Counted from the first letter of the stretch, positions 2,982 to 37,810 are shown. The stretch is DNA of 64,000 bases from Escherichia coli (GCF_013315695.1 NZ_CP054356.1), one strand, 5' to 3'. Notes: generated from the letters alone by a model not told the origin. Program-made: numbers and translations.

Positions 2982-5969
2982 TTAAGGCTGTTTTTTGTAC
3001 TGACTGACATCAACTGCTCGCAAAGGACGATACTTCCCTTCAGCCAGCTTCTTATTGTTTTTCCAGATATAGTCCCCTGTCAGATTAATGTGCTCCCAGC
3101 CCAGCGGAGACAAATGTGACAACAATTGCTCATTAATATGTAGCCCTTTCTTTTTCAGCAGGTTAATGGCGTTTTCTATATATACGGTATTCCACAAAGT
3201 GATTGCGGCAGTGAGCAGCGTAAGCCCACTGGCGCGGTAACTCTGGTTTTCAATACCACGATCCCTTATTTCTCCCAGACGATGCATGAAGACAGCTCTG
3301 GCAAGGGCATTCCGGGCTTCCCCTTTGTTCAGACCTGCCTGAACCCTACGACGAAGCGCCGGATCGCGGAACCAGTCCAGCATGAACAGTGTTCGCTCAA
3401 TACGACCAATTTCTCTTAACGCCTTAGCAAGGCCATTCTGTTTCGGATAACTGGTCAATTTTTTCAGCATCAGAGAAGCGGTCACTGTTCCCTGTTTTAT
3501 TGAGGTCGCCAGTCTCAGAATTTCATTCCAGTGTATTTTTATCTCTTTGATATTCAGGGGGGTTGTGGAGATAATTGACTGTAGAGCAGGATAGTTATCA
3601 GCTTTACCTTGAATAAACAAACGTTTGTCATGCAGATCCCGGATCCTTGGGGCAAAAGCGAATCCCAGCAGATGCATTAGTGCAAAAACATGCTCCGTGA
3701 AACCTGCTGTATCGGTGTAATGTTCCGTTATATCAAGGTCACTTTCGTGATACAGAAGACCATCAAGTACGTGGGTGGAATCACGAACACGACTGATTAC
3801 TTTGGTATAAAACGGACTATATTGATCTGAGATATGCGTATAAAACTGCACCCCAGGTTCCTGACCGTACTTCAAATTAACCTGACCGGCATAGCGCCCA
3901 TGACTGCCAACCCTAAAATTCTGGCCGTCAGAGGATGAGGTGGAACCGTCTCCCCATAATGCCGCCAGCGGTCGTGACTTCTGGGCATTAACCAGTTCTG
4001 CCAGTGCAGCAGAGTACGTTTCATCACGGATGTACCATGCTTGTATGTTTTCCAGCGAAGCTCGTGTGGTTCCCGGACAGGACTCTGCCATTTTTTCCAA
4101 CCCTAGATTGATGCCGTCCGCCAGGATAGTGGTTAGTAGTAAACGATTATCCTGAGGACGGATTAGCGGATTCTTAAGATGAGTAAAATGTCGCGAGAAG
4201 GCAGTCCATCGCTCGACTTCATCAAGTATCTCTGTAATTTTGGGGTGCGGTAGCATGTTGTAAATCAGGTCGGCCAGGGGAGAGACTGTTGAAGGAACGC
4301 TGTTATCCAGTGGGGTGATCTTTACACCTTTATCTGAAATATCCACATCAGGAAGCTCCCCTGCGACAGCCATTGCGTTAACTTCCTCCAGACGGGAGGC
4401 CAGTAGAGTCAGTCTGGCATTAAGATAAGCCCCGCATTCTGTGCCAACAGGTAAATTTAATAGGTTATTATTTAATAACTTTTCGAAATCATCGTTAGGC
4501 ATAAGATAATCATCAAAGTTTTTGTAGCGCCGGGAGCCCCTGACCCAGATATCACCCGCCCGCAGCGCCCCCTTTAGCTCATTCATTGCGCAAATTTCAT
4601 AGTATTGTCGGTCAATGCCTGAGGGGGTGACCACCATCTTTCTCCAGCTCTCAGGAATGAAATCCAGTGGTGCCGATGCAGGAACCTTTCGTAGCTGTTT
4701 ACGGTACATATCACGAATAGTTTCAAGGGCATCATTAAGCGGCAACGCTGCCGAAGTGGCTCTCAGTTGCAGGGCCGATAGAAAACGAAAAGAATATTTG
4801 CGCAATGTACTGAATTTTTCGGTAATAAGATGAAGCGGCTCAAAATTATCCTTACGTGCAAGAAGCTTTGTTTCCTCCAGACTGGCGACAAAATCGTCCC
4901 ACGGTAACACTCGTTCAATAGCAGACAGAGGATCTTCGCCTGCATTGCGTGCATCCAGGATAGCCTGGCCAACAGAAACATACTGACGTAACTTTTGCTG
5001 TATCAACTTGCCCGTTTTCTGAAGACGCTCAGCCTGCTGATGTTTTGCCCGACTGAACATGCTGCCTAGAATACGTTCATGCAGTTCTATAATTTCATCA
5101 ATGATTGTGGCTCTGGCCTCAGTCAGTACACAGACCATCGTTGCGTATCGACGAGCAGGGGAAAAATCAGCCAGATCGCGACTGCTCATTTTGCGGCCCT
5201 CACGCGCGAGTTTCAGCAATCGGTTCTGGTGAACGGTTCTCTCCACTCCTTCCGGCAGCGCCAGAGCTTCAATAGCGTTAAGGCGGTCAATGTGTTGCAG
5301 GACATTCTTTCCATTGATTTTCCCTGGAGGTTGAAGCAGCCACGTCAAACGGGATATTTGTTTTTCATTTGTCACCAACAGGGCATCAAGCGCAGATTTA
5401 TGCGTGATATCAAGGTGCGCATTCAGCGTTGTATACACCGTTTTATCACCCAGTGTCATTGCTTCTGCACAGGTACGTTCCAGAACATCAATGCCTGGAA
5501 TAATAATTCGCTGTTGATGCAGGTACTTTAGTAACTCCTCTGCGATAAGTATGCCTCTGTCCGTTCTGGTAGACAGAGGGAGCAGATGCCGGATACATTC
5601 TTTCTGAAGTGCACCGTTAAAGGCTTTCAGTTCAAGATATCGATAAAGTTCCCTCATATGCTCACGTCTGGTGGTATCACGACCGGAAACGTATTCCTGC
5701 CAAAGTTCTGCTGATAACTTAAGTCGAGCGCCAATGGTTTTTAGCAATTTTGCGGGTGGGGATGATTTTTTATCCGGGGCAAACCCAATACTTTTCAGAT
5801 AACAGAGAAGAACGGCAAAACCAAACCGGCTGGCAGGTTTACGGTGAGCATTGATAATTGCCAGATCCTGCTCACTGAAATACGTCATTCGAGTCAGTGT
5901 TAACTCATCGTCTGGCAATGCCAGTAATGATTCTCTTTCCGATAGAGAAAGAATCTGCCTCCTTGCCAT
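2982..5969 (-). CDS. tnpA: Tn3-family transposase TnpA, 995 aa, intact
   Basis: Uninterrupted 995-aa ORF with Tn3-family transposase length and organisation, distinct in sequence from the Tn2/Tn3 TnpA at 9012-12017. Confidence 0.9.
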   Translation of the reverse strand: MARRQILSLSERESLLALPDDELTLTRMTYFSEQDLAIINAHRKPASRFGFAVLLCYLKSIGFAPDKKSSPPAKLLKTIGARLKLSAELWQEYVSGRDTTRREHMRELYRYLELKAFNGALQKECIRHLLPLSTRTDRGILIAEELLKYLHQQRIIIPGIDVLERTCAEAMTLGDKTVYTTLNAHLDITHKSALDALLVTNEKQISRLTWLLQPPGKINGKNVLQHIDRLNAIEALALPEGVERTVHQNRLLKLAREGRKMSSRDLADFSPARRYATMVCVLTEARATIIDEIIELHERILGSMFSRAKHQQAERLQKTGKLIQQKLRQYVSVGQAILDARNAGEDPLSAIERVLPWDDFVASLEETKLLARKDNFEPLHLITEKFSTLRKYSFRFLSALQLRATSAALPLNDALETIRDMYRKQLRKVPASAPLDFIPESWRKMVVTPSGIDRQYYEICAMNELKGALRAGDIWVRGSRRYKNFDDYLMPNDDFEKLLNNNLLNLPVGTECGAYLNARLTLLASRLEEVNAMAVAGELPDVDISDKGVKITPLDNSVPSTVSPLADLIYNMLPHPKITEILDEVERWTAFSRHFTHLKNPLIRPQDNRLLLTTILADGINLGLEKMAESCPGTTRASLENIQAWYIRDETYSAALAELVNAQKSRPLAALWGDGSTSSSDGQNFRVGSHGRYAGQVNLKYGQEPGVQFYTHISDQYSPFYTKVISRVRDSTHVLDGLLYHESDLDITEHYTDTAGFTEHVFALMHLLGFAFAPRIRDLHDKRLFIQGKADNYPALQSIISTTPLNIKEIKIHWNEILRLATSIKQGTVTASLMLKKLTSYPKQNGLAKALREIGRIERTLFMLDWFRDPALRRRVQAGLNKGEARNALARAVFMHRLGEIRDRGIENQSYRASGLTLLTAAITLWNTVYIENAINLLKKKGLHINEQLLSHLSPLGWEHINLTGDYIWKNNKKLAEGKYRPLRAVDVSQYKKQP

Positions 5970-6828: not shown

Positions 6829-7060
6829 GGGTAAGTCCCTTAAAGAAGAACTCCTGCGGGGTCATATCCGGGCGGGCATCTGTTCCCTCCTCAGCTACCG
6901 CCAGCAAGAAATCACTCTGTACTGGCCGCACGATAGCGCGAATGAGATCTGGTAGCGCCTTAACGGGTAGTTTCTCTGCCACAGAAAGCAGATGATTGAA
7001 GCGTTTTTTTTCATTGGCTATAGTTGCTTTATCTTTCTTGTTTCGGTTCCAGAACATCAC
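6829..7060 (-). pseudogene. 5' portion of the unknown gene interrupted by the Tn5403-like insertion (continues at 2948)
   Basis: GTG start at 7060 with a GGAGGG Shine-Dalgarno about 9 nt upstream on the minus strand; reading frame enters the transposon IR at 6828. Confidence 0.55.
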
Positions 7061-7247: not shown

Positions 7248-8120
<873 letters not shown>

Positions 8121-9011: not shown

Positions 9012-12000
9012 ATGCCCGTTGACTTTCTGACCACTGAGCAGACTGAAAGCTATGGCAGATTCACCGGTGAACCGGATGAGCTTCAGCTGGCACGATATTT
9101 TCACCTTGATGAAGCAGACAAGGAATTTATCGGAAAAAGCAGAGGTGATCACAACCGTCTGGGCATTGCCCTGCAAATTGGATGTGTCCGTTTTCTGGGC
9201 ACCTTCCTCACCGATATGAATCATATTCCTTCCGGCGTCCGGCATTTTACCGCCAGACAGCTCGGGATTCGTGATATCACCGTTCTTGCAGAATACGGTC
9301 AGAGGGAAAATACCCGCCGTGAGCATGCAGCGCTGATACGTCAGCACTATCAGTATCGTGAATTTGCCTGGCCCTGGACATTTCGCCTTACCCGTCTTTT
9401 ATATACCCGGAGCTGGATAAGCAACGAACGTCCTGGCCTGCTTTTCGATCTGGCGACAGGGTGGCTTATGCAACATCGTATTATTCTCCCCGGAGCCACT
9501 ACGCTGACCCGGTTGATTTCAGAGGTAAGGGAAAAGGCGACGTTGCGCCTGTGGAACAAACTGGCACTGATACCGTCAGCCGAACAGCGTTCACAGCTGG
9601 AGATGCTGCTGGGGCCAACTGATTGCAGCCGCCTGTCTTTACTGGAATCACTGAAAAAGGGCCCTGTGACCATCAGTGGTCCGGCGTTTAATGAAGCAAT
9701 TGAACGCTGGAAAACTCTGAACGATTTTGGCCTGCATGCTGAAAACCTGAGTACACTCCCGGCTGTGCGCCTGAAAAATCTCGCACGTTATGCTGGTATG
9801 ACTTCGGTGTTCAATATTGCCAGGATGTCACCGCAGAAAAGGATGGCGGTTCTGGTTGCCTTTGTCCTTGCATGGGAAACGCTGGCGCTGGATGATGCAT
9901 TGGACGTTCTGGACGCCATGCTGGCCGTTATCATCCGTGACGCCAGAAAGATTGGGCAGAAAAAACGGCTCCGCTCGCTGAAGGATCTGGATAAATCTGC
10001 ATTGGCGCTCGCCAGCGCATGTTCGTACCTGCTGAAAGAAGAAACACCGGACGAATCGATTCGTGCTGAGGTGTTCAGCTACATCCCAAGGCAAAAGCTG
10101 GCTGAAATCATCACGCTTGTCCGTGAAATTGCCCGGCCCTCAGACGATAATTTTCATGAAGAAATGGTGGAGCAGTACGGGCGCGTTCGTCGTTTCCTGC
10201 CCCATCTGCTGAATACCGTTAAATTTTCATCCGCACCTGCCGGGGTTACCACTCTGAATGCCTGTGACTACCTCAGCCGGGAGTTCAGCTCATGGCGGCA
10301 GTTTTTTGACGACGCACCAACGGAAATTATCAGTCGGTCATGGAAACGGCTGGTGATTAACAAGGAAAAACATATCACCCGCAGGGGATACACGCTCTGC
10401 TTTCTCAGTAAACTGCAGGATAGTCTGAGGCGGAGGGATGTCTACGTTACCGGCAGTAACCGGTGGGGAGATCCTCGTGCAAGATTACTACAGGGTGCTG
10501 ACTGGCAGGCAAACCGGATTAAGGTTTATCGTTCTTTGGGGCACCCGACAGACCCGCAGGAAGCAATAAAATCTCTGGGTCATCAGCTTGATAGTCGTTA
10601 CAGACAGGTTGCTGCACGTCTTTGCGAAAATGAGGCTGTCGAACTCGATGTTTCTGGCCCGAAGCCCCGGTTGACAATTTCTCCCCTCGCCAGTCTTGAT
10701 GAGCCGGACAGTCTGAAACGACTGAGCAAAATGATCAGTGATCTACTCCCTCCGGTGGATTTAACGGAGTTGCTGCTCGAAATTAACGCCCATACCGGAT
10801 TTGCTGATGAGTTTTTCCATGCTAGTGAAGCCAGTGCCAGAGTTGATGATCTGCCCGTCAGCATCAGCGCCGTGCTGATGGCTGAAGCCTGCAATATCGG
10901 TCTGGAACCACTGATCAGATCAAATGTTCCTGCACTGACCCGACACCGGCTGAACTGGACAAAAGCGAACTATCTGCGGGCTGAAACTATCACCAGCGCT
11001 AATGCCAGACTGGTTGATTTTCAGGCAACGCTGCCACTGGCACAGATATGGGGTGGAGGAGAAGTGGCATCTGCAGATGGAATGCGCTTTGTTACGCCAG
11101 TCAGAACAATCAATGCCGGACCGAACCGCAAATACTTTGGTAATAACAGAGGGATCACCTGGTACAACTTTGTGTCCGATCAGTATTCCGGCTTTCATGG
11201 CATCGTTATACCGGGGACGCTGAGGGACTCTATCTTTGTGCTGGAAGGTCTTCTGGAACAGGAGACCGGGCTGAATCCAACCGAAATTATGACCGATACA
11301 GCAGGTGCCAGCGAACTTGTCTTTGGCCTTTTCTGGCTGCTGGGATACCAGTTTTCTCCACGCCTGGCTGATGCCGGTGCTTCGGTTTTCTGGCGAATGG
11401 ACCATGATGCCGACTATGGCGTGCTGAATGATATTGCCAGAGGGCAATCAGATCCCCGAAAAATAGTCCTTCAGTGGGACGAAATGATCCGGACCGCTGG
11501 CTCCCTGAAGCTGGGCAAAGTACAGGTTTCAGTGCTGGTCCGTTCATTGCTGAAAAGTGAACGTCCTTCCGGACTGACTCAGGCAATCATTGAAGTGGGG
11601 CGCATCAACAAAACGCTGTATCTGCTTAATTATATTGATGATGAAGATTACCGCCGGCGCATTCTGACCCAGCTTAATCGGGGAGAAAGTCGCCATGCCG
11701 TTGCCAGAGCCATCTGTCACGGTCAAAAAGGTGAGATAAGAAAACGATATACCGACGGTCAGGAAGATCAACTGGGCACACTGGGGCTGGTCACTAACGC
11801 CGTCGTGTTATGGAACACTATTTATATGCAGGCAGCCCTGGATCATCTCCGGGCGCAGGGTGAAACACTGAATGATGAAGATATCGCACGCCTCTCCCCG
11901 CTTTGCCACGGACATATCAATATGCTCGGCCATTATTCCTTCACGCTGGCAGAACTGGTGACCAAAGGACATCTGAGACCATTAAAAGAGGCGTCAGAGG

Positions 12001-13151: not shown

Positions 13152-13883
13152 TCAGTCTCCTGTTCCCATAACTTCTTTAATAAATGCCTTTTCTGGAGTT
13201 GTTTCATTATTGGATTGAATAAAATCACTCATATCAGAATAACGATTTATACTATTTTTTGAAAGCATATAGAAGGGGATTTTATCTCTTGTTAATTCAT
13301 CAAAAATATGAGTTGAGAAAAATACCGTTTTCCCGTCAGCGGTGATCTTATTTATCAGTTCCCATAACATCATTCTGTACTGAATATCAATGCCTACAGT
13401 TGGTTCATCCAGTAAAAATAAACGGGCATTTTTGCAAAGCGTTAGCATCAAAGATATGATAAGCCAACGCTTCTCTCCATAACTTACCGTGTAAGTCCTT
13501 TTACGTCTTATTTTATCATAGCGAATGAAAAAATTATCATTCCATTTATGATTAAGCTCTGTCCATGCCTGTTTTTTAGTTAACTTATTGAAGCAGCAAA
13601 TCAAATCAAGAACCTCCTCATTCCTTAGTGTACCTGAAAGATTTATGACTTGAGGTAGACTTACTAATTCTCCACCAGAGAAATTTCGCTTGAGGGTCCC
13701 TTCATAATTACTGACTCCGCCCCTGATAAGGTTAAAAAGAGTGGTCTTCCCGGCTCCATTTTCTCCAAGCAGACCTATCAACTCTCCCTGCTCAATCTTA
13801 AGCGACAGATTATTGAAAACAGGGGGTAAATTTACTTTATATGAAAAGCTCAGAGAGTTGATTTCTAAAAGAGGTATGGTCAT
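13152..13883 (-). CDS. mcbF: Microcin B17 export ABC transporter ATP-binding protein McbF
   Basis: Walker A motif GENGAGKTT and ABC signature region; operon position. Confidence 0.85.
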   Translation of the reverse strand: MTIPLLEINSLSFSYKVNLPPVFNNLSLKIEQGELIGLLGENGAGKTTLFNLIRGGVSNYEGTLKRNFSGGELVSLPQVINLSGTLRNEEVLDLICCFNKLTKKQAWTELNHKWNDNFFIRYDKIRRKRTYTVSYGEKRWLIISLMLTLCKNARLFLLDEPTVGIDIQYRMMLWELINKITADGKTVFFSTHIFDELTRDKIPFYMLSKNSINRYSDMSDFIQSNNETTPEKAFIKEVMGTGD

Positions 13884-19113: not shown

Positions 19114-19467
19114 TTAGTTTATTAACTTCATCGCATTCTTTTTTGTCTCCTCATCACTTTTTTGCTCCGATTGTGAAGAGGACTGAATGATTGTTGAAGA
19201 ATTTAAATCGGCCATCTCTTTTGGAAATAGCGATCTCAATATATTCACGATATCTGAAAATGTGGTTTCTTTCGTCAGCAGTTCACATAAAAGGAAAGGG
19301 GCCCTGGGATCTTGTCTGTATAAGGCCAGACCTGCCGTCAGTGCAGCCCGGTTAAGGCGGCTGCGTTCCCCTTGCGGGATACTGTCCAGTGTATCACAAA
19401 CAATTTTATCTGTTTGATTTACATCTGGATTTAGCTTAAAGGCAATGGTTCTGCGCTTGTCCATCAT
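19114..19467 (-). CDS. parR: Plasmid partition centromere-binding protein ParR (StbB), 117 aa
   Basis: Translation [55 protein letters not shown]... matches the recalled R1/R100 ParR. Confidence 0.85.
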   Translation of the reverse strand: MMDKRRTIAFKLNPDVNQTDKIVCDTLDSIPQGERSRLNRAALTAGLALYRQDPRAPFLLCELLTKETTFSDIVNILRSLFPKEMADLNSSTIIQSSSQSEQKSDEETKKNAMKLIN

Positions 19468-20429
19468 TAATTACCTATGAGATACATACCGTTAACTAAA
19501 TCATATTGAGAGTTATTGGTTTTAAAAAAACGTTCATCACGAATCTGTGTGTGTTTTTTTACTGCATCGCATATTAATTCTGCGCCACCACCTATAACCA
19601 TAACATGAGTATAACCAGAAAATTCATTGAGTGTATTTAATACACGTTGCTCAAGTTTACGAAGTGCTTCATTCATTGCTTCGGTGACTATTGATATTTT
19701 ATTCTCATCATTAATTCGTTGCTTCAGATAGTTATTATCTTTTCTGTGAATAATTATATCGTCAGCAAGATAGCTACTTCCTTTTGTTCTCGCAAGAGAA
19801 AGGGCATCTTTTACTGCAGATGTGACCAGAGATACACCAAGAGATGAGTCTCCGTATATTTTACTGATTCCCGATAATTTCCCCATTACCTGAGAAATAT
19901 CTAATGTGGTGCCCCCGAGATCTATAATTAATAAAGAATCTAACTCATCCAGTTCTTGTAGAACTTCATAACCTGCCGGTATAGATTCAGGCATGACTTT
20001 TACATCTTTTATTGTGAATGTATCCCCACCATTTAATGTAATTTTTTTCCGGAAGTTTGCTTTCTTACGCTCAATATTTTCCGTATTGGGTTGGTTATTC
20101 CTGTCGTAATACTCTGTCAGAGGAAGTGTGCAAACAATATCCACTTCGCTTACCGGCAGACCACTGGTCAGTAAGGCGTGGTGCACCGCAACGACATTAA
20201 CGTCGCTGTATTGCCATGCGATATTGGTTGTGACTACAGCATCCGGGCTGATTGGATCAAATGAATACTGTTCGCCGTTCAGTGTGTAGTTAAAGACCTT
20301 TTTATCACCAAAAGAAACTGCCCACTCGCGTTTGAAGCTGTTCGGGCTAATGTGCTGTTTAATTGTTCCGTCGCTTTCCTGCCACTGTAGTTTGATGTTT
20401 GTTGAACCGTCATCAATGAATACCAACAT
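19467..20429 (-). CDS. parM: Actin-like partition ATPase ParM (StbA), 320 aa
   Basis: Translation [42 protein letters not shown]... matches the recalled R1 ParM; stop of parM abuts the parR start. Confidence 0.9.
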
Positions 20430-20600
20430 TTATAAAACTCCTTATGGTGTTTTTTTTGGTGTTTGTTTGGGTGTGTTTTGGGTTTTAAGTGGGTTTATTT
20501 GTCAAGTTTACCCCATTTTAACTATCAATCAATGATTATTTGTCTTGTTTTGGTGTTTTATTGGGTTTGGAGTGGGTTGTTTTTGGGTTTTGTTTGGCGG
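20430..20600. promoter_or_regulatory. parC: parC centromere/promoter region with tandem gggttt/ggtgttt-type iterons
   Basis: Immediately upstream of parM: repeated short units ttttggtgtttgtttgggtgtgttttgggtttt...ttggtgttttattgggtttggagtgggttgtttttgggttttgtttgg. Confidence 0.55.
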
Positions 20601-20610
20601 ATAACAAAAG

Positions 20611-20920
20611 ATGTCGCCGGGCTCCTCTTTTTACTGCGCCGGCTGACGCGGCGCGGCAGGAACGCTGCCTGTGGTCAGTGTCCCGCGTCCGGCCGGGCAC
20701 GGGACGGGCGCTTTTACCGCTCCCGGCTGGCGTCGGTGACAGTGTACGCCAGCCCGTCGCCCTTTTCTGATGAGCGCCCTTCAAGCCGCTTTCGCGGCAT
20801 AGCCTTGCCGTCAAAAAGACGACGGCTGCGGTATTCCACGGTCGGCCTGACCCGTTACCGGGCGCGGTGAACAGCCCACAGGCAGCGGGGAACGGGCGCC
20901 ACAGGGGCGCCCTCCCGATG
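20611..20920. repeat. Leading-region repeat family R1, copy a (about 310 bp, GC-rich, hairpin-rich)
   Basis: Near-identical to 21916-22230; each copy sits directly upstream of a plus-strand ORF; a short partial match occurs at 24473-24510. Confidence 0.5.
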
Positions 20921-20940
20921 CTCCTGTGAGGATAATTCCC

Positions 20941-21867
20941 ATGCCAAACTGGTGCTCGAATCGTATGTATTTTTCTGGTGAACCGGCACAGATCGCTGAG
21001 ATTAAACGACTGGCCAGCGGTGCAGTCACACCGTTTTATCGCCGCGCCACAAATGAAGGTATTCAGCTGTTTCTGGCCGGAAGTGCCGGACTTCTGCAGA
21101 CCACTGAAGATGTGCGGTTTGAACCATGCCCCGGACTGACGGCTGCCGGACGTGGTGTTTTATCGCCGGAGAATATCACGTTCACCCGCTGGCTGAAGCA
21201 CCTGCAGGACGGTGTACTGCTGGATGAGCAAAACTGCCTGATGCTGCATGAACTCTGGCTGCAGAGCGGTACTGGACAGCGTCGCTGGGAAGGGTTACCG
21301 GATGATGTCAGGGAAACTATCACTGTGCATTTCACCGCAAAAAGAGGTGACTGGTGTGACATCTGGGGTAACGAGGATGTATCGGTGTGGTGGAACCGTC
21401 TGTGTGACAACGTACTGCCGGAAAAAACCATGCCGTTTGACCTGCTGACGGTTTTGCCGACCCGCCTGGATATTGAAGTGAATGGCTTTAACGGCGGTGT
21501 TCTGAACGGTGTTCCTTCTGCATATCACTGGTATACAGAACGGTATGGCGTGAAGTGGCCTTGTGGGTATGACCTGAATATCAGCAGTCAGGGGGAAAAC
21601 TTCATTCAGGTAGATTTCGACACGCCGTGGTGTCAGCCGGAAAGCGACGTTGTTGCAGAATTAAGCCGCCGTTTCGGCTGCACGCTGGAGCACTGGTACG
21701 CCGAACAGGGCTGCAATTTCTGTGGCTGGCAGTTGTATGAGCGCGGAGAGCTTGTTGATGTGCTGTGGGGGGAACTGGAATGGTCTTCCCCGACAGATGA
21801 CGATGAGCTGCCGGAAGTCACCGGACCTGCGTGGATAGTCGACAATGTGGCGCATTATGGCGGATGA
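20941..21867 (+). CDS. Conserved leading-region protein of unknown function, about 308 aa (N-terminus MPNWCSNRMYFSGEP)
   Basis: ORF with a GAGG Shine-Dalgarno about 10 nt upstream of the ATG at 20941; family not confidently recognised. Confidence 0.55.
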   Translation: MPNWCSNRMYFSGEPAQIAEIKRLASGAVTPFYRRATNEGIQLFLAGSAGLLQTTEDVRFEPCPGLTAAGRGVLSPENITFTRWLKHLQDGVLLDEQNCLMLHELWLQSGTGQRRWEGLPDDVRETITVHFTAKRGDWCDIWGNEDVSVWWNRLCDNVLPEKTMPFDLLTVLPTRLDIEVNGFNGGVLNGVPSAYHWYTERYGVKWPCGYDLNISSQGENFIQVDFDTPWCQPESDVVAELSRRFGCTLEHWYAEQGCNFCGWQLYERGELVDVLWGELEWSSPTDDDELPEVTGPAWIVDNVAHYGG

Positions 21868-21915
21868 AGTATGACGGAGACGGGCGGGCAACCGCCCGTT
21901 TCTTTTCCGGTAAAG

Positions 21916-22230
21916 GATGTCGCCGTGCTCCTCTTTTTACTGCGCCGGCTGACGCGGCGCGGCATAAACGCTGCCTGTGGTCAGTGTCCCGCGTCCGGTG
22001 GGCACGGGACGGGCGCTTTTACCGCTCCCGGCTGGCGTCGGTGACAGTGTACGCCAGCCTGTCGCCCTTTTCTGATGAACGCCCTTCAAGCCGCTTTCGC
22101 GGCATAGCCTTGCCGTCAGAAAGACGACGGCTGCGGTATTCCACGGTCGGCCTGACCCGTTACCGGACGCGGTGAACAGCCCACAGGCAGCGGGGAACGG
22201 GCACCACAGGGGTGCCCTCCCGGTGCCCTC
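21916..22230. repeat. Leading-region repeat family R1, copy b
   Basis: See copy a; ends at the AAGGAG RBS of the methyltransferase gene. Confidence 0.5.
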
Positions 22231-22250
22231 TGTAAGAGAAGGAGTTTTGT

Positions 22251-22934
22251 ATGTCCCGTTTTGTCCTCGGTAACTGCATCGATGTTATGGCCCGTATTCC
22301 TGATAACGCCATTGATTTCATACTGACTGACCCGCCGTACCTCGTCGGTTTCCGTGACCGTTCCGGGCGCACCATTGCCGGTGATGTTAATGATGACTGG
22401 CTGCAACCTGCCAGCAATGAGATGTACCGCGTACTCAAAAAAGACGCGCTGATGGTCAGCTTCTACGGCTGGAACCGTGTCGATCGCTTTATGGCCGCCT
22501 GGAAACGCGCCGGATTCAGCGTGGCAGGGCACCTCGTGTTCACCAAAAACTACACATCCAAATCTGCGTATGTCGCGTACCGTCACGAATGCGCTTACAT
22601 CCTGGCAAAGGGCAGTCCGGCCCGGCCCCGTAACCCTCTGCCGGATGTGCTGGGCTGGAAATATTCAGGCAATCGTCATCACCCGACGGAAAAGCCCGTT
22701 ACCAGCCTGCAACCACTGATTGAGAGCTTCACACATCCGAACGCGATTGTGCTGGACCCGTTTGCAGGCAGCGGCTCAACCTGCGTCGCTGCCCTCCAGT
22801 CCGGACGCCGGTATATCGGTATCGAGCTGCTTGAACAGTATCACCGTGCCGGACAGCAACGACTGGCCGCCGTGCAACGGGCCATGCAGCAGGGGGCCGC
22901 GAATGATAACTGGTTTGAACCGGAGGCTGCGTAA
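22251..22934 (+). CDS. Orphan DNA N6-adenine methyltransferase (DPPY motif), 227 aa
   Basis: Motif ILTDPPYLVGF and a C-terminal DPFAGSGST SAM-binding motif (permuted order typical of beta-class N6/N4 MTases); no adjacent restriction endonuclease gene. Confidence 0.8.
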   Translation: MSRFVLGNCIDVMARIPDNAIDFILTDPPYLVGFRDRSGRTIAGDVNDDWLQPASNEMYRVLKKDALMVSFYGWNRVDRFMAAWKRAGFSVAGHLVFTKNYTSKSAYVAYRHECAYILAKGSPARPRNPLPDVLGWKYSGNRHHPTEKPVTSLQPLIESFTHPNAIVLDPFAGSGSTCVAALQSGRRYIGIELLEQYHRAGQQRLAAVQRAMQQGAANDNWFEPEAA

Positions 22935-24419: not shown

Positions 24420-24566
24420 TGACGCTGGCGGGGAAAAATCTCCGCCTTTTCCAGTCGGTCCCCGGAAAGAGCAAAAGGATGTCGCCGCAGGCTCCTCTTT
24501 ACCCGGCCATGTGGGGCATGGCCTTGTGGGTTTTCAGTTATGTGGCCTCAGCGTCGTGTGCGGGCT

Positions 24567-24792
24567 GTGCCGTGCCTCCATCGTAGCCGGGCTTCTGCGG
24601 GCGGGTTGCAAGGTAAGGTGAACCGCTGCGGTCACCCGGTCCCTCCTTCCCGTCTGCCGTGATTTTCCGGTCGTTCACCCGCTCAGATTTCGCGGTCTCA
24701 CCCTTCAACTCCCGTCAGCCGTGCGCGTCAGGCTGCGGCTTCCCTTGCGCCCTTGCAACCCTGCAGGCCCGGCAAAGATGGAGGCACGGCAC
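24567..24792. other. Long imperfect inverted repeat (about 45-bp arms at 24567-24612 and 24751-24792) upstream of klcA; candidate ssDNA hairpin (ssi/Frpo-like)
   Basis: Arm 1 gtgccgtgcctccatcgtagccgggcttctgcgggcgggttgcaagg and reverse complement of arm 2 gtgccgtgcctccatctttgccgggcctgcagggttgcaagg, read directly. Confidence 0.5.
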
Positions 24793-24834
24793 CGCCCGGT
24801 GTCGCGGAATATGTGAACAACGGAGGAAAACATC

Positions 24835-26109: not shown

Positions 26110-26650
26110 CTCTCCTGTTTATGCCTTTTCCGGGCGTCCCCCTGGCGGGGCGGGCTGTCGTGAACGGAGCCAGCGGAGCTGTCTCCGCCCTGGCGGGCTT
26201 CCATCCCTGACGCAAAACCCCGGGTTTGCAGCGACCGGAACGGTCGCGCCACCCCTGTCGCGCCGTGGCCTGCGCTCCCGGCATCCCGGCAAAAAGACGC
26301 CGGGATGTAAGGAGCAACGCCGTTTCGCAAACCGCGCTTCACGTCGTTGCAGCGGGTCCCTGCTCATTGCCTGCCGGGTGCCACACACCCGTATGAGTCC
26401 CTGTCGCCGGGGGCATAGACAGCCACAACCTGCCGCACTGACTGTCCAGGGTAAATGAACAGCCCACAAAATTTTTTACCTAAAACCCGGTAAAAAATTT
26501 TGCGTTCTGCCCAGGACAGGTGCGTCAGGCCGTGGCAGTGATGCCCCTTGCGGCGAAGGTTCTCAAACGGGTGAAGTTCATACCACAGGGAATACAGCAG
26601 CAGGTTCCCGCGAAACGTCAAAACCGCGGCTCCCGAAACTCAACGGGTGA
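26110..26650. repeat. Leading-region repeat family R2 (Frpo/ssi-like ssDNA promoter candidate), copy 1
   Basis: About 540 bp alignable to 29390-29935 and 34800-35370; shared core ggtaaatgaacagcccacaaaattttttacc.aaaacccggtaaaaaattttgcgttctgc...gtcaaaaccgcggctcccgaaactcaac; preceded by a TTC/CTC-rich simple tract. Confidence 0.5.
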
Positions 26651-26884
26651 TGTTCTTTAAAAATCAGGATTTATTTCAGGCTCCGGCAATACGCATTTAT
26701 GTGTTCTGTCAGTCATCCGGCTGGCAGGTAATGAAAACGCAGGAACAGAAGGAGGAAAACACCGGAAAGCGTCAGATGCAGATATGAAAAAAAGCAGGTC
26801 AGGGACCTGCTTAATCCACGCCGTAAGAATTGTGCGACCAATTTTGACGGCATTGTTAACCAATTTGTCATAAGGAATCCATTT

Positions 26885-29389: not shown

Positions 29390-29935
29390 TTGTTCTCCTG
29401 CTTATGCCTTTTCCGGGCGTCCCCCTGGCGGGGCGGGCTGTCGTGAACGGAGCCAGCGGAGCTGTCTCCGCCCTGGCGGGCTTCCATCCCTGACGCAAAA
29501 ACCCGGGTTTGCAGCGACCGGAACGGTCGCGCCACCCTTGTCGCGCCGTGGCCTGCGCTCCCGGCATCCCGGCAAAAGACGCCGGGATGTAAGGAGCAAC
29601 GCTGTTTCGCAAACCGCGCTTCACGTCGTTGCGGCGGGTCCCTGCCCGTTGTTCTGTCCGGTGCCATTCACCTGTTTAAGCCCCTGTCGCCGGGGGCTGA
29701 TACAGCCACAACCTGCCGCACTGACTGTCCAGGGTAAATGAACAGCCCACAAAATTTTTTACCCAAAACCCGGTAAAAAATTTTGCGTTCTGCCCAGGAC
29801 AGGTGCGTCAGGCCGTGGCAGTGATGCCCCATGCGGCGAAGGTTCTCAAACAGGTGATGGTGAATACCGGAGGGAACAAAAGGCAGGTCCCCGCAAAACG
29901 TCAAAACCGCGGCTCCCGAAACTCAACAGATGATG
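29390..29935. repeat. Leading-region repeat family R2 (Frpo/ssi-like), copy 2, directly upstream of ssb; preceded by a (CTGCTA)5 microsatellite at 29318-29350
   Basis: See copy 1; microsatellite read directly. Confidence 0.5.
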
Positions 29936-34799: not shown

Positions 34800-35370
34800 T
34801 GTTTTGTTGTTCTCCTGCTTATGCCTTTTCCGGGCGTCCCCCTGGCGGGGCGGGCTGTCGTGAACGGAGCCAGCGAAGCTGTCTCCGCCCTGGCGGGCTT
34901 CCATCCCTGACGCAAAACCCCCGGCTTGCAGCGACTGTTCCGGTCGCGCCGCCTCTGTCGCGCCGTGGCCTGCGCTCCTGGCATCCCGGCAAAAGGCCGC
35001 CGGGATGTAAGGCGCAACGCCGTTTCGCAAACCGCGCTTCACGTCGTTGCGGCGGGTCCCTGCCCGTTGTTGTGTCCGGTGCCATTCACCTGTTTAAGCC
35101 CTGTCGCCGGGGCTGATAGTTGATACAACCTGCCGCACTGACTGTCCGGTAAAATGAACAGCCCACAAAATTTTTTACCCAAAACCCGGTAAAAATTTTG
35201 CGTTCTGCTCCAGACAGGTGCGTCAGGCCGTGGCAGGTGATGCCCCTGCGGCGAAGGTTCTCAAACAGGTGATGGTGAATACCGGAGGAACAAAAGGCAG
35301 GTCCCCGCAAAACGTCAAAACCGCGGCTCCCGAAACTCAACAGATGATGGGGGCTGAAAACATCAGATAC
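34800..35370. repeat. Leading-region repeat family R2 (Frpo/ssi-like), copy 3; preceded by a tandem 18-bp unit (ctgactctgattactgct x2) at 34748-34783
   Basis: See copy 1; ends at the RBS (caggagga) of the ORF at 35381. Confidence 0.5.
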
Positions 35371-35380
35371 AGGAGGAATT

Positions 35381-35677
35381 ATGAGCGCATTTTCTTTTAA
35401 CACCACTTATCAGCCAACAGGCGATCAGCAGAAAGACGCAATCGCACAAATCGGGATCATGCAGAATCGTGCTGTTCAGGCAAATCTTGCATATCAGAGC
35501 TGCCGGGATTCTGGTGCACTCTTTAAGGTGCTCCACCAGGTCAATAATGAGCTGCATGACTTACTGGATAGCCTGGAGAATCATACTCCTCTTGTCAGAA
35601 AAAACGCTGATGAGTTGATCGCGCTGTTACTGCTTTTCACTCGGCAGGTTGGTCAGTCCCGAACTGACCTGATTTGA
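35381..35677 (+). CDS. Hypothetical protein, 98 aa; first ORF downstream of the oriT-proximal R2 copy
   Basis: Strong RBS AGGAGGA 7 nt upstream of the ATG; no recognised motif. Confidence 0.5.
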   Translation: MSAFSFNTTYQPTGDQQKDAIAQIGIMQNRAVQANLAYQSCRDSGALFKVLHQVNNELHDLLDSLENHTPLVRKNADELIALLLLFTRQVGQSRTDLI

Positions 35678-37439: not shown

Positions 37440-37810
37440 CGTAAATAATTTAACCTACTCCACAAAAAGGCTCAACAGGTTGGTGGTTCTCACCACCAAA
37501 AGCACCACACCCCACGCAAAAACAATTTTTTGCTGATTTTTCTTTATAAATAGAGTGTTATGAAAAATTAGTTTCTCTTACTCTCTTTATGATATTTAAA
37601 AAAGCGGTGTCGGCGCGGCTACAACAACGCGCCGACACCGCTTTGTAGGGGTGGTACTGACTATTTTTATAAAAAACATCATTTTATATTAGGGGCGCTG
37701 CTAGCGGCGCGGTGTGTTTTTTTATAGGATACCGCTAGGGGCGCTGCTAGCGGTGCGTCCCTGTTTGTATTATGAATTTTAGTGTTCCGAAATTAACTTT
37801 ATTTTATGTT
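37440..37810. other. oriT: oriT (origin of transfer): F-type nic sequence on the minus strand (GGGGTGT^GGTGCT, nick between 37507 and 37506), with TraM-binding repeats near traM
   Basis: Reverse complement of 37490-37520 reads gcgtggggtgtggtgcttttggtggtgag, the recalled F/R100 nic region; ctagcggcgcg/cgctaggggcgctgctagcgg repeats upstream of traM resemble sbm sites. Transfer would proceed from 37506 toward lower coordinates, so the leading region enters first. Confidence 0.8.

Follow-up and report, generated by a model that had tools for sequence, protein, structure and literature searches.

The 64-kb stretch of Escherichia coli DNA analyzed in this study, referred to as the window, is an F-type conjugative plasmid. 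A scan of the window against Rfam matched the traJ 5′ UTR and FinP at 38.3 kb and sok at 34.1 kb. The F-type oriT nick-site sequence, GTGGGGTGTGGTGCTTT, occurs once in the window as an exact match, on the minus strand at 37499–37515. The position of the nick sequence on the minus strand identifies this strand as the transferred (T) strand, which enters the recipient from ~37.5 kb leftwards. The parM and parR genes occupy the minus strand at 19114–20429 and are followed by 11-bp iterons, detected by repeat search at 20430–20600 and read as parC. To their right, on the leading side and 15–17 kb from the nick, lie two plus-strand genes. One encodes a 308-aa protein with DUF1281 and DUF1281_C assigned by domain search (20941–21867), with the Shine-Dalgarno (SD) sequence GAGGA at 20929–20933 and the ATG at 20941. 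The other encodes a 227-aa N6/N4 DNA methyltransferase (N6_N4_Mtase; 22251–22934) of the DPPY type, a homologue of M.EcoGIX with the motif L-T-D-P-P-Y as translated, and has the SD AAGGAG at 22237–22242 and the ATG at 22251. Because both genes are on the plus strand, the transferred strand is their template.

Each of these genes is preceded by one copy of a GC-rich direct repeat of ~315 bp, here named R1. Repeat search and blastn delimited R1a (20606–20921) ahead of the DUF1281 gene and R1b (21912–22226) ahead of the methyltransferase gene, the functional strand of both being the minus, i.e., transferred, strand. The copies are 95.1% identical over 326 nt (blastn), and the 308-nt core, at 96.4% identity, contains 11 differing positions, including one 1-nt indel. 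Two near-identical, GC-rich copies had been recognized in the initial annotation of this DNA, with coordinates that were off by no more than 5 nt. The repeat had been said there to end exactly at the ribosome-binding sites; the similarity between R1a and R1b stops 8–11 nt short of the SD of each gene. R1a is 97.1% and R1b 95.5% identical to the copy in F; the slightly closer relationship of R1a to the F copy than to R1b indicates that the two copies are not a fresh duplication. Inside the element, R1a also retains all the columns that are invariant in the other 16 homologues of the alignment described below.

R1 is, with high confidence, the class 3 single-stranded DNA (ssDNA) promoter of IncF and IncI leading regions, probably the element called ssp3 in F. 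In the study by Wen et al. (NAR 2025, PMC12672017), six operons of the plasmid pESBL are strongly induced early after transfer, hairpins are predicted upstream of 6/6, and the start sites of all six are mapped by 5′ RACE. The same study divides these promoters into class 1 (Frpo/ssi1-3), class 2 (klcA and ardA), and class 3 (M.EcoGIX), describes the hairpin upstream of M.EcoGIX as a class 3 ssDNA promoter with strong early (zygotic) induction in pESBL, and reports that class 2 and class 3 promoters are conserved in F (Wen et al. 2025, PMC12672017). R1b is identical at 307/307 positions to the pESBL-EA11 sequence between the DUF1281 gene and M.EcoGIX, so promoter activity in ssDNA form is its published function. 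R1a is 96–97% identical to R1b and to the pESBL and F copies. The assignment to class 3 thus draws on homology to the M.EcoGIX hairpin (R1b, 307/307; R1a, 96.4%), on a leading-region position with the transferred strand as the template, and on a large stable fold of the single transferred strand. Neither strand contains a sigma-70 consensus promoter for double-stranded DNA between 20400 and 22300. The elements of F have been named ssp1a/b, ssp2, and ssp3, and ssp3, which is described as a promoter that lacks roadblock activity, has been used in F in place of ssp2 as a promoter of equal strength (Fraikin et al. bioRxiv 2026). Taken together, the texts of the Wen and Fraikin papers indicate that F ssp3 is probably the class 3 promoter. 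The initial annotation had pictured the repeat as a portable regulatory cassette, whether promoter, ssDNA priming site, or RNA leader. The promoter option has turned out to be the published function of an identical sequence, and the portability is evident as well: R1 precedes two unrelated genes here, the promoters of the methyltransferase gene differ by genome, and the exchange of ssp3 for ssp2 works in F.

The nature and function of R1 are therefore already known from work published in 2025, and our additions are modest: the copy at the DUF1281 gene, a covariation-supported junction with mismatches in the −10 element, a boundary module, and the swapping of promoter classes. DUF1281 is absent from the six induced pESBL operons (Wen et al. 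2025, PMC12672017). The DUF1281 gene of pESBL is not preceded by R1, and its upstream sequence is unrelated. On the basis of its sequence, we predict that R1a is a functional promoter that would make DUF1281 zygotically induced in the present plasmid lineage.

The single T strand of both copies is predicted to form a large and stable structure, with a folding energy of −101.1 kcal/mol for R1a and −97.8 kcal/mol for R1b (z = −5.5 for each). Folding of both strands, suggested with the initial annotation, confirmed that both are stable, the plus strand reaching −96.7 kcal/mol with z = −5.0 compared to z = −5.5 for the T strand. Homologues were collected from methyltransferase loci, taking one genome per species; 17 loci held diverged class 3 homologues, which scored 119–153 bits in nhmmer compared to ~320 bits for near-identical copies. 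The alignment used throughout contains 17 sequences from different genera, namely 14 diverged homologues, R1a, R1b, and the F copy. Its RNAalifold consensus for the T strand has an outer stem of 24 pairs (S1), followed inwards by a three-way junction with the helices ACGGG/CCCGT, TCAGGCCG/CGGCTTGA, and GGGCG/CGCCC. One junction arm carries the invariant sequence GCGAAAGC, and the other is a hairpin (hairpin H) with the loop TACACT or TAAAAT. Across the 17 homologues, 98% of the cells pair, compared to 33–46% when the partners are slid by 1–3 columns, and compensatory changes occur at 17 pairs, a number equalled in 0/500 shuffles, although the same alignment yielded the structure, so that the slid control is generous to it. 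In R1a, inverted-repeat analysis placed the 3′ arm of S1, the proposed non-template arm, at 20663–20692 on the minus strand, with compensatory changes at 9 S1 pairs among the 17 homologues; the 5′ arm, the proposed template arm, lies at 20858–20887 on the same strand, as located from the inverted repeat and the consensus fold. The same two approaches put the arms of R1b at 21969–21999 (3′) and 22162–22192 (5′), again on the minus strand.

Smaller structural elements are also conserved. The alignment shows the invariant GCGAAAGC mini-hairpin on the minus strand at 20788–20795 in R1a and 22093–22100 in R1b; d(GCGAAAGC) reportedly belongs to a very stable type of DNA mini-hairpin, associated with the work of Hirao and colleagues. 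Between S1 and the ribosome-binding site, the plus strand carries a small GC hairpin, GGGCGCC-ACAGG-GGCGCCC (R1a, 20894–20912; R1b, 22199–22217), in which 4/6 pairs show compensatory changes. R1b has GGGCACC...GGTGCCC at this place, so that the two copies differ by a compensatory G-C to A-T change. This hairpin is probably within the 5′ UTR of the mRNA. The strand preference of the large fold is consistent: in 17/17 homologues the T strand folds more stably than its complement (mean difference, 5.4 kcal/mol), the consensus energy is −54.6 for the T strand compared to −39.8 for the plus strand, and the alignment contains 76 G.T cells against 6 A.C cells. These energies and the excess of G.T point to folded T-strand DNA rather than to an mRNA leader. 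Rfam 15 gave no match in the R1 region at gathering thresholds, the best sub-threshold match scoring 18.7 bits against 138.

The −10 element is inferred to be nACACT, a conserved sequence in the 3′ arm of S1. It reads GACACT on the minus strand at 20682–20677 in R1a and 21988–21983 in R1b, and it is invariant in the 17 homologues except for one AGACT. The second base, A (A275), is always opposite C or G, and the sixth base, T (T279), is always opposite T, while the pairs flanking these mismatches covary in the 17 homologues. The equivalents of these two bases, A(−11) and T(−7), are those that sigma-70 flips out of the −10 element. Judged from the −10 spacing, the predicted +1 would be ~7 nt downstream, near 20880 in R1a and 22185 in R1b. 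The position is a purine in 17/17 homologues; in R1 it corresponds to the last A of TGAACAGCCCACA. The 5′ UTRs would accordingly be 61 nt (R1a) and 66 nt (R1b) long and would contain the small covarying hairpin as a stabilizing element. At a linear distance of 16–18 nt from this −10 there is no canonical −35, and on the T strand even the best-scoring linear pairs of boxes match at 7/12 positions. The sequence TTGAAG (columns 172–177 of the alignment) is invariant in 17/17 homologues and lies at the three-way junction on the minus strand (R1a, 20779–20784; R1b, 22084–22089). Speculatively, the junction TTGA could supply the −35 contact if two helices stack; with the helices stacked, its distance to the −10 would be 15 nt if counted along the template side and 19 nt along the non-template side.

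Other candidates for promoter boxes were considered. Linear matching of sigma-70 boxes was rejected, as it gave no consensus on either strand and only 7/12 on the T strand. The loop of hairpin H contains a second −10-like hexamer, TACACT, held single-stranded on the minus strand (R1a, 20741–20746; R1b, 22046–22051). In most diverged homologues the loop reads TAAAAT, and A2, A4, and T6 are invariant. The presence of this hexamer means that the assignment of the −10 box is not unique. As the main −10, TACACT/TAAAAT was set aside because the DNA on its 3′ side could find a template partner only in the DNA on its 5′ side, a geometrically inconsistent arrangement; it is retained as a conserved loop. 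The 13-mer TGAACAGCCCACA was likewise rejected as a core of class 1 and class 3, as it is missing from F ssiD and from diverged class 3 elements and is on opposite arms in the two classes.

The boundary of R1 is shared with class 2 promoters. The initial annotation had described a third, 38-bp piece of the repeat at 24473–24510. The piece is real but shorter, spanning 29 nt at 24474–24502 with a 2-nt insertion, and it is not an R1 fragment but a boundary module common to class 2 promoters. Repeat search located this module on the plus strand at the distal edge of R1a (20606–20634, where it reads AAAAGATGTCGCCGGGCTCCTCTTTTTAC), of R1b (21912–21940), and of the class 2 klcA hairpin (24474–24502). 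There are exactly three occurrences of the pattern GATGTCGC-N2-6-GCTCC in the window, where 0.03 would be expected. As AAGGA[T/A/C]GTCGCC-N2-5-GCTCC, the module marks the end of class 2 and class 3 elements that is distal to the promoter; as GGAAGTCGCC or the GGACGTCGCC variant, it is also in the F klcA, pESBL klcA, and pESBL ardA copies, and Frpo'4 and Frpo*3, two published candidate sequences (Samuel et al. 2024), contain it too. In the diverged loci it is located ~305–336 nt upstream of the ATG, and the copy-to-copy homology starts exactly at it. In the lineage of R1, F, and pESBL, pairing of the module with the SD and start codon reaches −20 kcal/mol and beats 98–100% of control windows, whereas in the diverged homologues the pairing is no better than in control windows. 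A general anti-SD or anti-start function was thus rejected, since the pairing is strong only in the R1/F/pESBL lineage. A leader-peptide ORF was rejected as well, because the reading frame changes between class 2 and class 3 copies and the encoded peptide lacks conservation. As a tentative model, which we consider possible but less than even in probability, class 3 would be a three-way-junction promoter whose −10 is pre-melted by two invariant mismatches and whose −35 TTGA is registered only by coaxial stacking, with the boundary module being functional in classes 2 and 3, either silencing read-through via SD/start pairing or marking the edge of the folded domain to polymerase or the replisome.

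The comparison with known ssDNA promoters places R1 apart from classes 1 and 2. The class 3 element of pESBL and ssp3 of F share with R1 the orthologous methyltransferase downstream, the strand relative to oriT, and the large GC-rich fold; what sets the present plasmid apart from pESBL is a second copy, which lies beside parC and is fused to the DUF1281 gene. Class 1 elements (Frpo/ssiD of F and ssi1-3 of ColIb-P9; Masai and Arai 1997, Bates 1999, Nasim 2004, Couturier 2023) follow the same logic, i.e., a T-strand fold of ~300 nt ahead of leading genes that is recognized by the host RNA polymerase only when single-stranded. Three class 1 copies are present in the window, near 26.4, 29.7, and 35.2 kb. 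Class 1 folds into one long hairpin whose apex is AT-rich (z = −12.6), whereas R1 is branched, more GC-rich, and without canonical boxes. Searches of the window with nhmmer and blastn for homology between R1 and class 1 returned only the R1 copies, and the two share one 13-mer. With class 2 (klcA/ardA; ssp2 or 'Frpo3' of F), represented in the window by the klcA hairpin at 24561–24798, R1 shares the distal-edge module AAGGAnGTCGCC-N-GCTCC, and this 29-nt module is the only sequence in common. By inspection, the T strand of class 2 carries recognizable boxes in its 3′ arm, TTGCA(T/A)-15 to 20 nt-TA(A/C)GAT, and TA(A/C)GAT is analogous to the class 3 nACACT on the same arm. Class 2 acts as a replication roadblock, whereas ssp3 reportedly does not. 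Nevertheless, class 2 and class 3 are interchangeable ahead of the methyltransferase gene, both across genomes and by experiment.

R1 is widespread and occurs in several arrangements. At ≥90% identity, it is present in at least 5000 plasmid records, mostly from Escherichia, Klebsiella, Salmonella, and Shigella. Together with the stable folds, this runs against the possibility, raised in the initial annotation, of a repeat with no stable structure and no conservation outside this plasmid. In plasmid searches, the R1-to-DUF1281 junction was found in at least 361 records (≥80% coverage) and the parC-to-R1 junction in at least 1624. The order parC-R1-DUF1281-R1-methyltransferase is found in this window and in pEA36_3 of E. 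albertii, parC-R1-methyltransferase in pDETEC24, and DUF1281-R1-methyltransferase without the upstream copy in pESBL and an F-like segment. The second of these is what would be expected to remain after recombination between two R1 copies. F has a single copy, upstream of its methylase and preceded by the 3′ end only of a DUF1281-like gene, and up to three copies per plasmid occur among the matches listed. Depending on the genome, either class 3 or a class-2-like hairpin stands ahead of the same methyltransferase gene, i.e., the promoters are swapped. In the RefSeq records of F, pESBL, pDETEC24, and pEA36_3, an annotated CDS for a ~100-aa "hypothetical protein" overlaps R1.

Two alternatives also assign R1 a role in plasmid establishment or gene expression. 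It may mainly be a priming signal (ssi) for the complementary strand, acting via an RNA polymerase transcript or a primase (G4-type) site, with expression being secondary. In vitro, transcripts from class 1 Frpo serve as primers for DNA synthesis, an early rifampicin-sensitive conversion occurs downstream of ssp1 in vivo, and R1 contains the invariant GCGAAAGC mini-hairpin, a motif known from the phage G4 complementary-strand origin. The priming evidence in the papers cited here, however, concerns ssp1/Frpo only, and ssp3 is described as a promoter without a roadblock. Moreover, the copies sit sense-oriented 8–11 nt from the ribosome-binding site, which fits expression, while a priming site has no such constraint. 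We therefore regard a mainly priming role as unlikely; priming and promoter roles of R1 are not mutually exclusive. An appreciably less probable reading is that R1 is a plus-sense mRNA leader that controls translation or stability and is transcribed from a conventional promoter upstream. It can point to the good fold of the plus strand (−96.7 kcal/mol, z = −5.0), to the hairpin next to the ribosome-binding site with its compensatory changes, where three sequences have a C.A on the DNA that corresponds to G.U in RNA, and to the ability of the boundary module to pair with the SD and start codon in the R1/F/pESBL lineage. However, the T strand is the more stable one in every homologue (17/17), so the RNA-leader option of the initial annotation is disfavored, and G.T far exceeds A.C. 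There is also no Rfam family at threshold, no sigma-70 promoter was found upstream, and the pairing of the module with the translation initiation region is no better than in controls in the diverged homologues. A hairpin and T-run at ~21881–21907, before R1b, is terminator-like by eye, although the scan did not call it.

Hardly any credence can be given to two further readings, in which R1 has no regulatory role of this kind. The first takes R1 as a protein-coding gene for the ~100-aa hypothetical protein of RefSeq, consistent with the CDSs annotated across it in F, pESBL, pDETEC24, and pEA36_3 and with a stop-free stretch of ~89 codons in the R1/F lineage. Yet a 1-nt indel separates R1a and R1b, the open frame varies in position, phase, and length among diverged homologues, the substitutions track base-pair covariation rather than codons, and GC-rich palindromic sequence yields long ORFs by chance. 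The other takes R1 as a small mobile or repetitive element (MITE- or REP-like), which would account for several copies per plasmid (up to three among the matches listed) and for the sharp homology boundaries. In the records inspected, however, R1 is always in one orientation, with the same strand as the template, directly 5′ of leading-region genes; it has neither a transposase nor a target duplication, and its internal structure is kept across genera with covariation. The record with three copies has two leading-region segments, which explains the extra copy. The class 3 ssDNA promoter is thus the preferred reading of R1.

As a class 3 promoter, R1 would act during the first phase of conjugation. 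The minus strand would enter the recipient 5′-first from the nick at ~37.5 kb, and each R1 copy, while single-stranded, would fold on this strand into a structure of ~230 nt with a 30-bp outer stem leading to the three-way junction. The host sigma-70 RNA polymerase may then take the folded R1 as a promoter and transcribe the same strand rightwards into the adjacent gene. Methyltransferase (from R1b) and, in this plasmid, DUF1281 protein (from R1a) are predicted to be produced in a burst while there is still no complementary strand. Synthesis of the complementary strand would remove the fold and switch the promoter off.

Because a 2025 publication had already described the element and what it does, the field's picture remains unchanged, and the contribution of this locus is more specific. 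The assignment of R1 to class 3 would correct the "hypothetical protein" annotation in four RefSeq records (F, pESBL, pDETEC24, and pEA36_3). For at least ~360 plasmids with the R1-DUF1281 junction, it predicts that the uncharacterized DUF1281 protein acts in establishment and is induced zygotically. Predictions at the nucleotide level follow for the −10 mismatches, for the TTGA at the junction, and for the boundary module, and promoter classes are seen to be swapped ahead of the same gene. ssDNA promoters set the first seconds of plasmid life in a new host. By timing anti-restriction, methylation, and SOS suppression, they influence the spread of resistance plasmids.

Three class 1 (Frpo/ssi-type) ssDNA promoters lie at about 26320-26660, 29600-29935 and 35010-35385, and the copy upstream of ssb has a predicted fold of -106 kcal/mol (z = -12.6). 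Together with one class 2 (klcA-type hairpin) and two class 3 promoters, they bring the number of ssDNA promoters in the window to six, from three classes. The promoter-distal edge of class 2 and class 3 promoters alike is marked by a conserved module, AAGGAnGTCGCC-N2-5-GCTCC, located at 20606-20634 and 21912-21940 in the class 3 copies R1a and R1b, and at 24474-24502 in the klcA promoter. The module recurs in several genera and within the published candidates Frpo'4 and Frpo*3 (Samuel et al. 2024); copies lie near 7000 and near 13860 in the pESBL locus (L003) and near 10390 in the F locus (L001). Between parM and R1a, GT-rich iterons of 11-12 bp occupy 20430-20600, as would be expected for parC, the centromere of a ParMR system. 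R1a begins no more than about 6 nt from where this array stops.

An exact 13-mer, TGAACAGCCCACA, is common to both class 3 copies (20868-20880 and 22173-22185) and all three class 1 copies (26456-26468, 29739-29751 and 35155-35167) of the same plasmid. It was absent from ssiD of F, a class 1 element, and from diverged class 3 homologues, and its sharing between the two classes probably reflects either a short conversion tract or coincidence. The class 3 element is covered in RefSeq by an annotated "hypothetical protein" of ~100 aa in F, pESBL and other plasmids (7785-8090 in F; 4395-4706 in pESBL; 2578-2871 in pDETEC24, L048; 2220-2531 and 3540-3851 in pEA36_3, L049). Homologues do not conserve its reading frame, and a 1-nt indel that distinguishes R1a from R1b disrupts it; the annotation is likely a spurious call.

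Leading-region sequence of enterobacterial plasmids, at 82-100% protein identity, also appeared in assemblies labelled Actinobacteria or Firmicutes, namely a Streptomyces morookaense assembly (L016, L029) and Collinsella, Oscillibacter and Oscillospiraceae MAGs (L004, L007, L023), most likely through contamination or mis-binning. Betaproteobacterial methyltransferase homologues (Achromobacter, Bordetella and Paraburkholderia; L034-L038, L041, L043) share 61-65% identity and have unrelated upstream regions, some with TTGACC and short inverted repeats.

The orthologous methyltransferase gene has a distant class-2-like hairpin ahead of it, rather than class 3, in 13 other loci from 12 genomes, including K. 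pneumoniae ATCC 13883, Y. pestis NCTC5923 and S. enterica subsp. arizonae (about 300 nt upstream of the match in L006, L009-L011, L013, L015-L017, L020, L021, L024, L044, L045). A single gene is thereby served by different promoter classes, which have been exchanged ahead of it.
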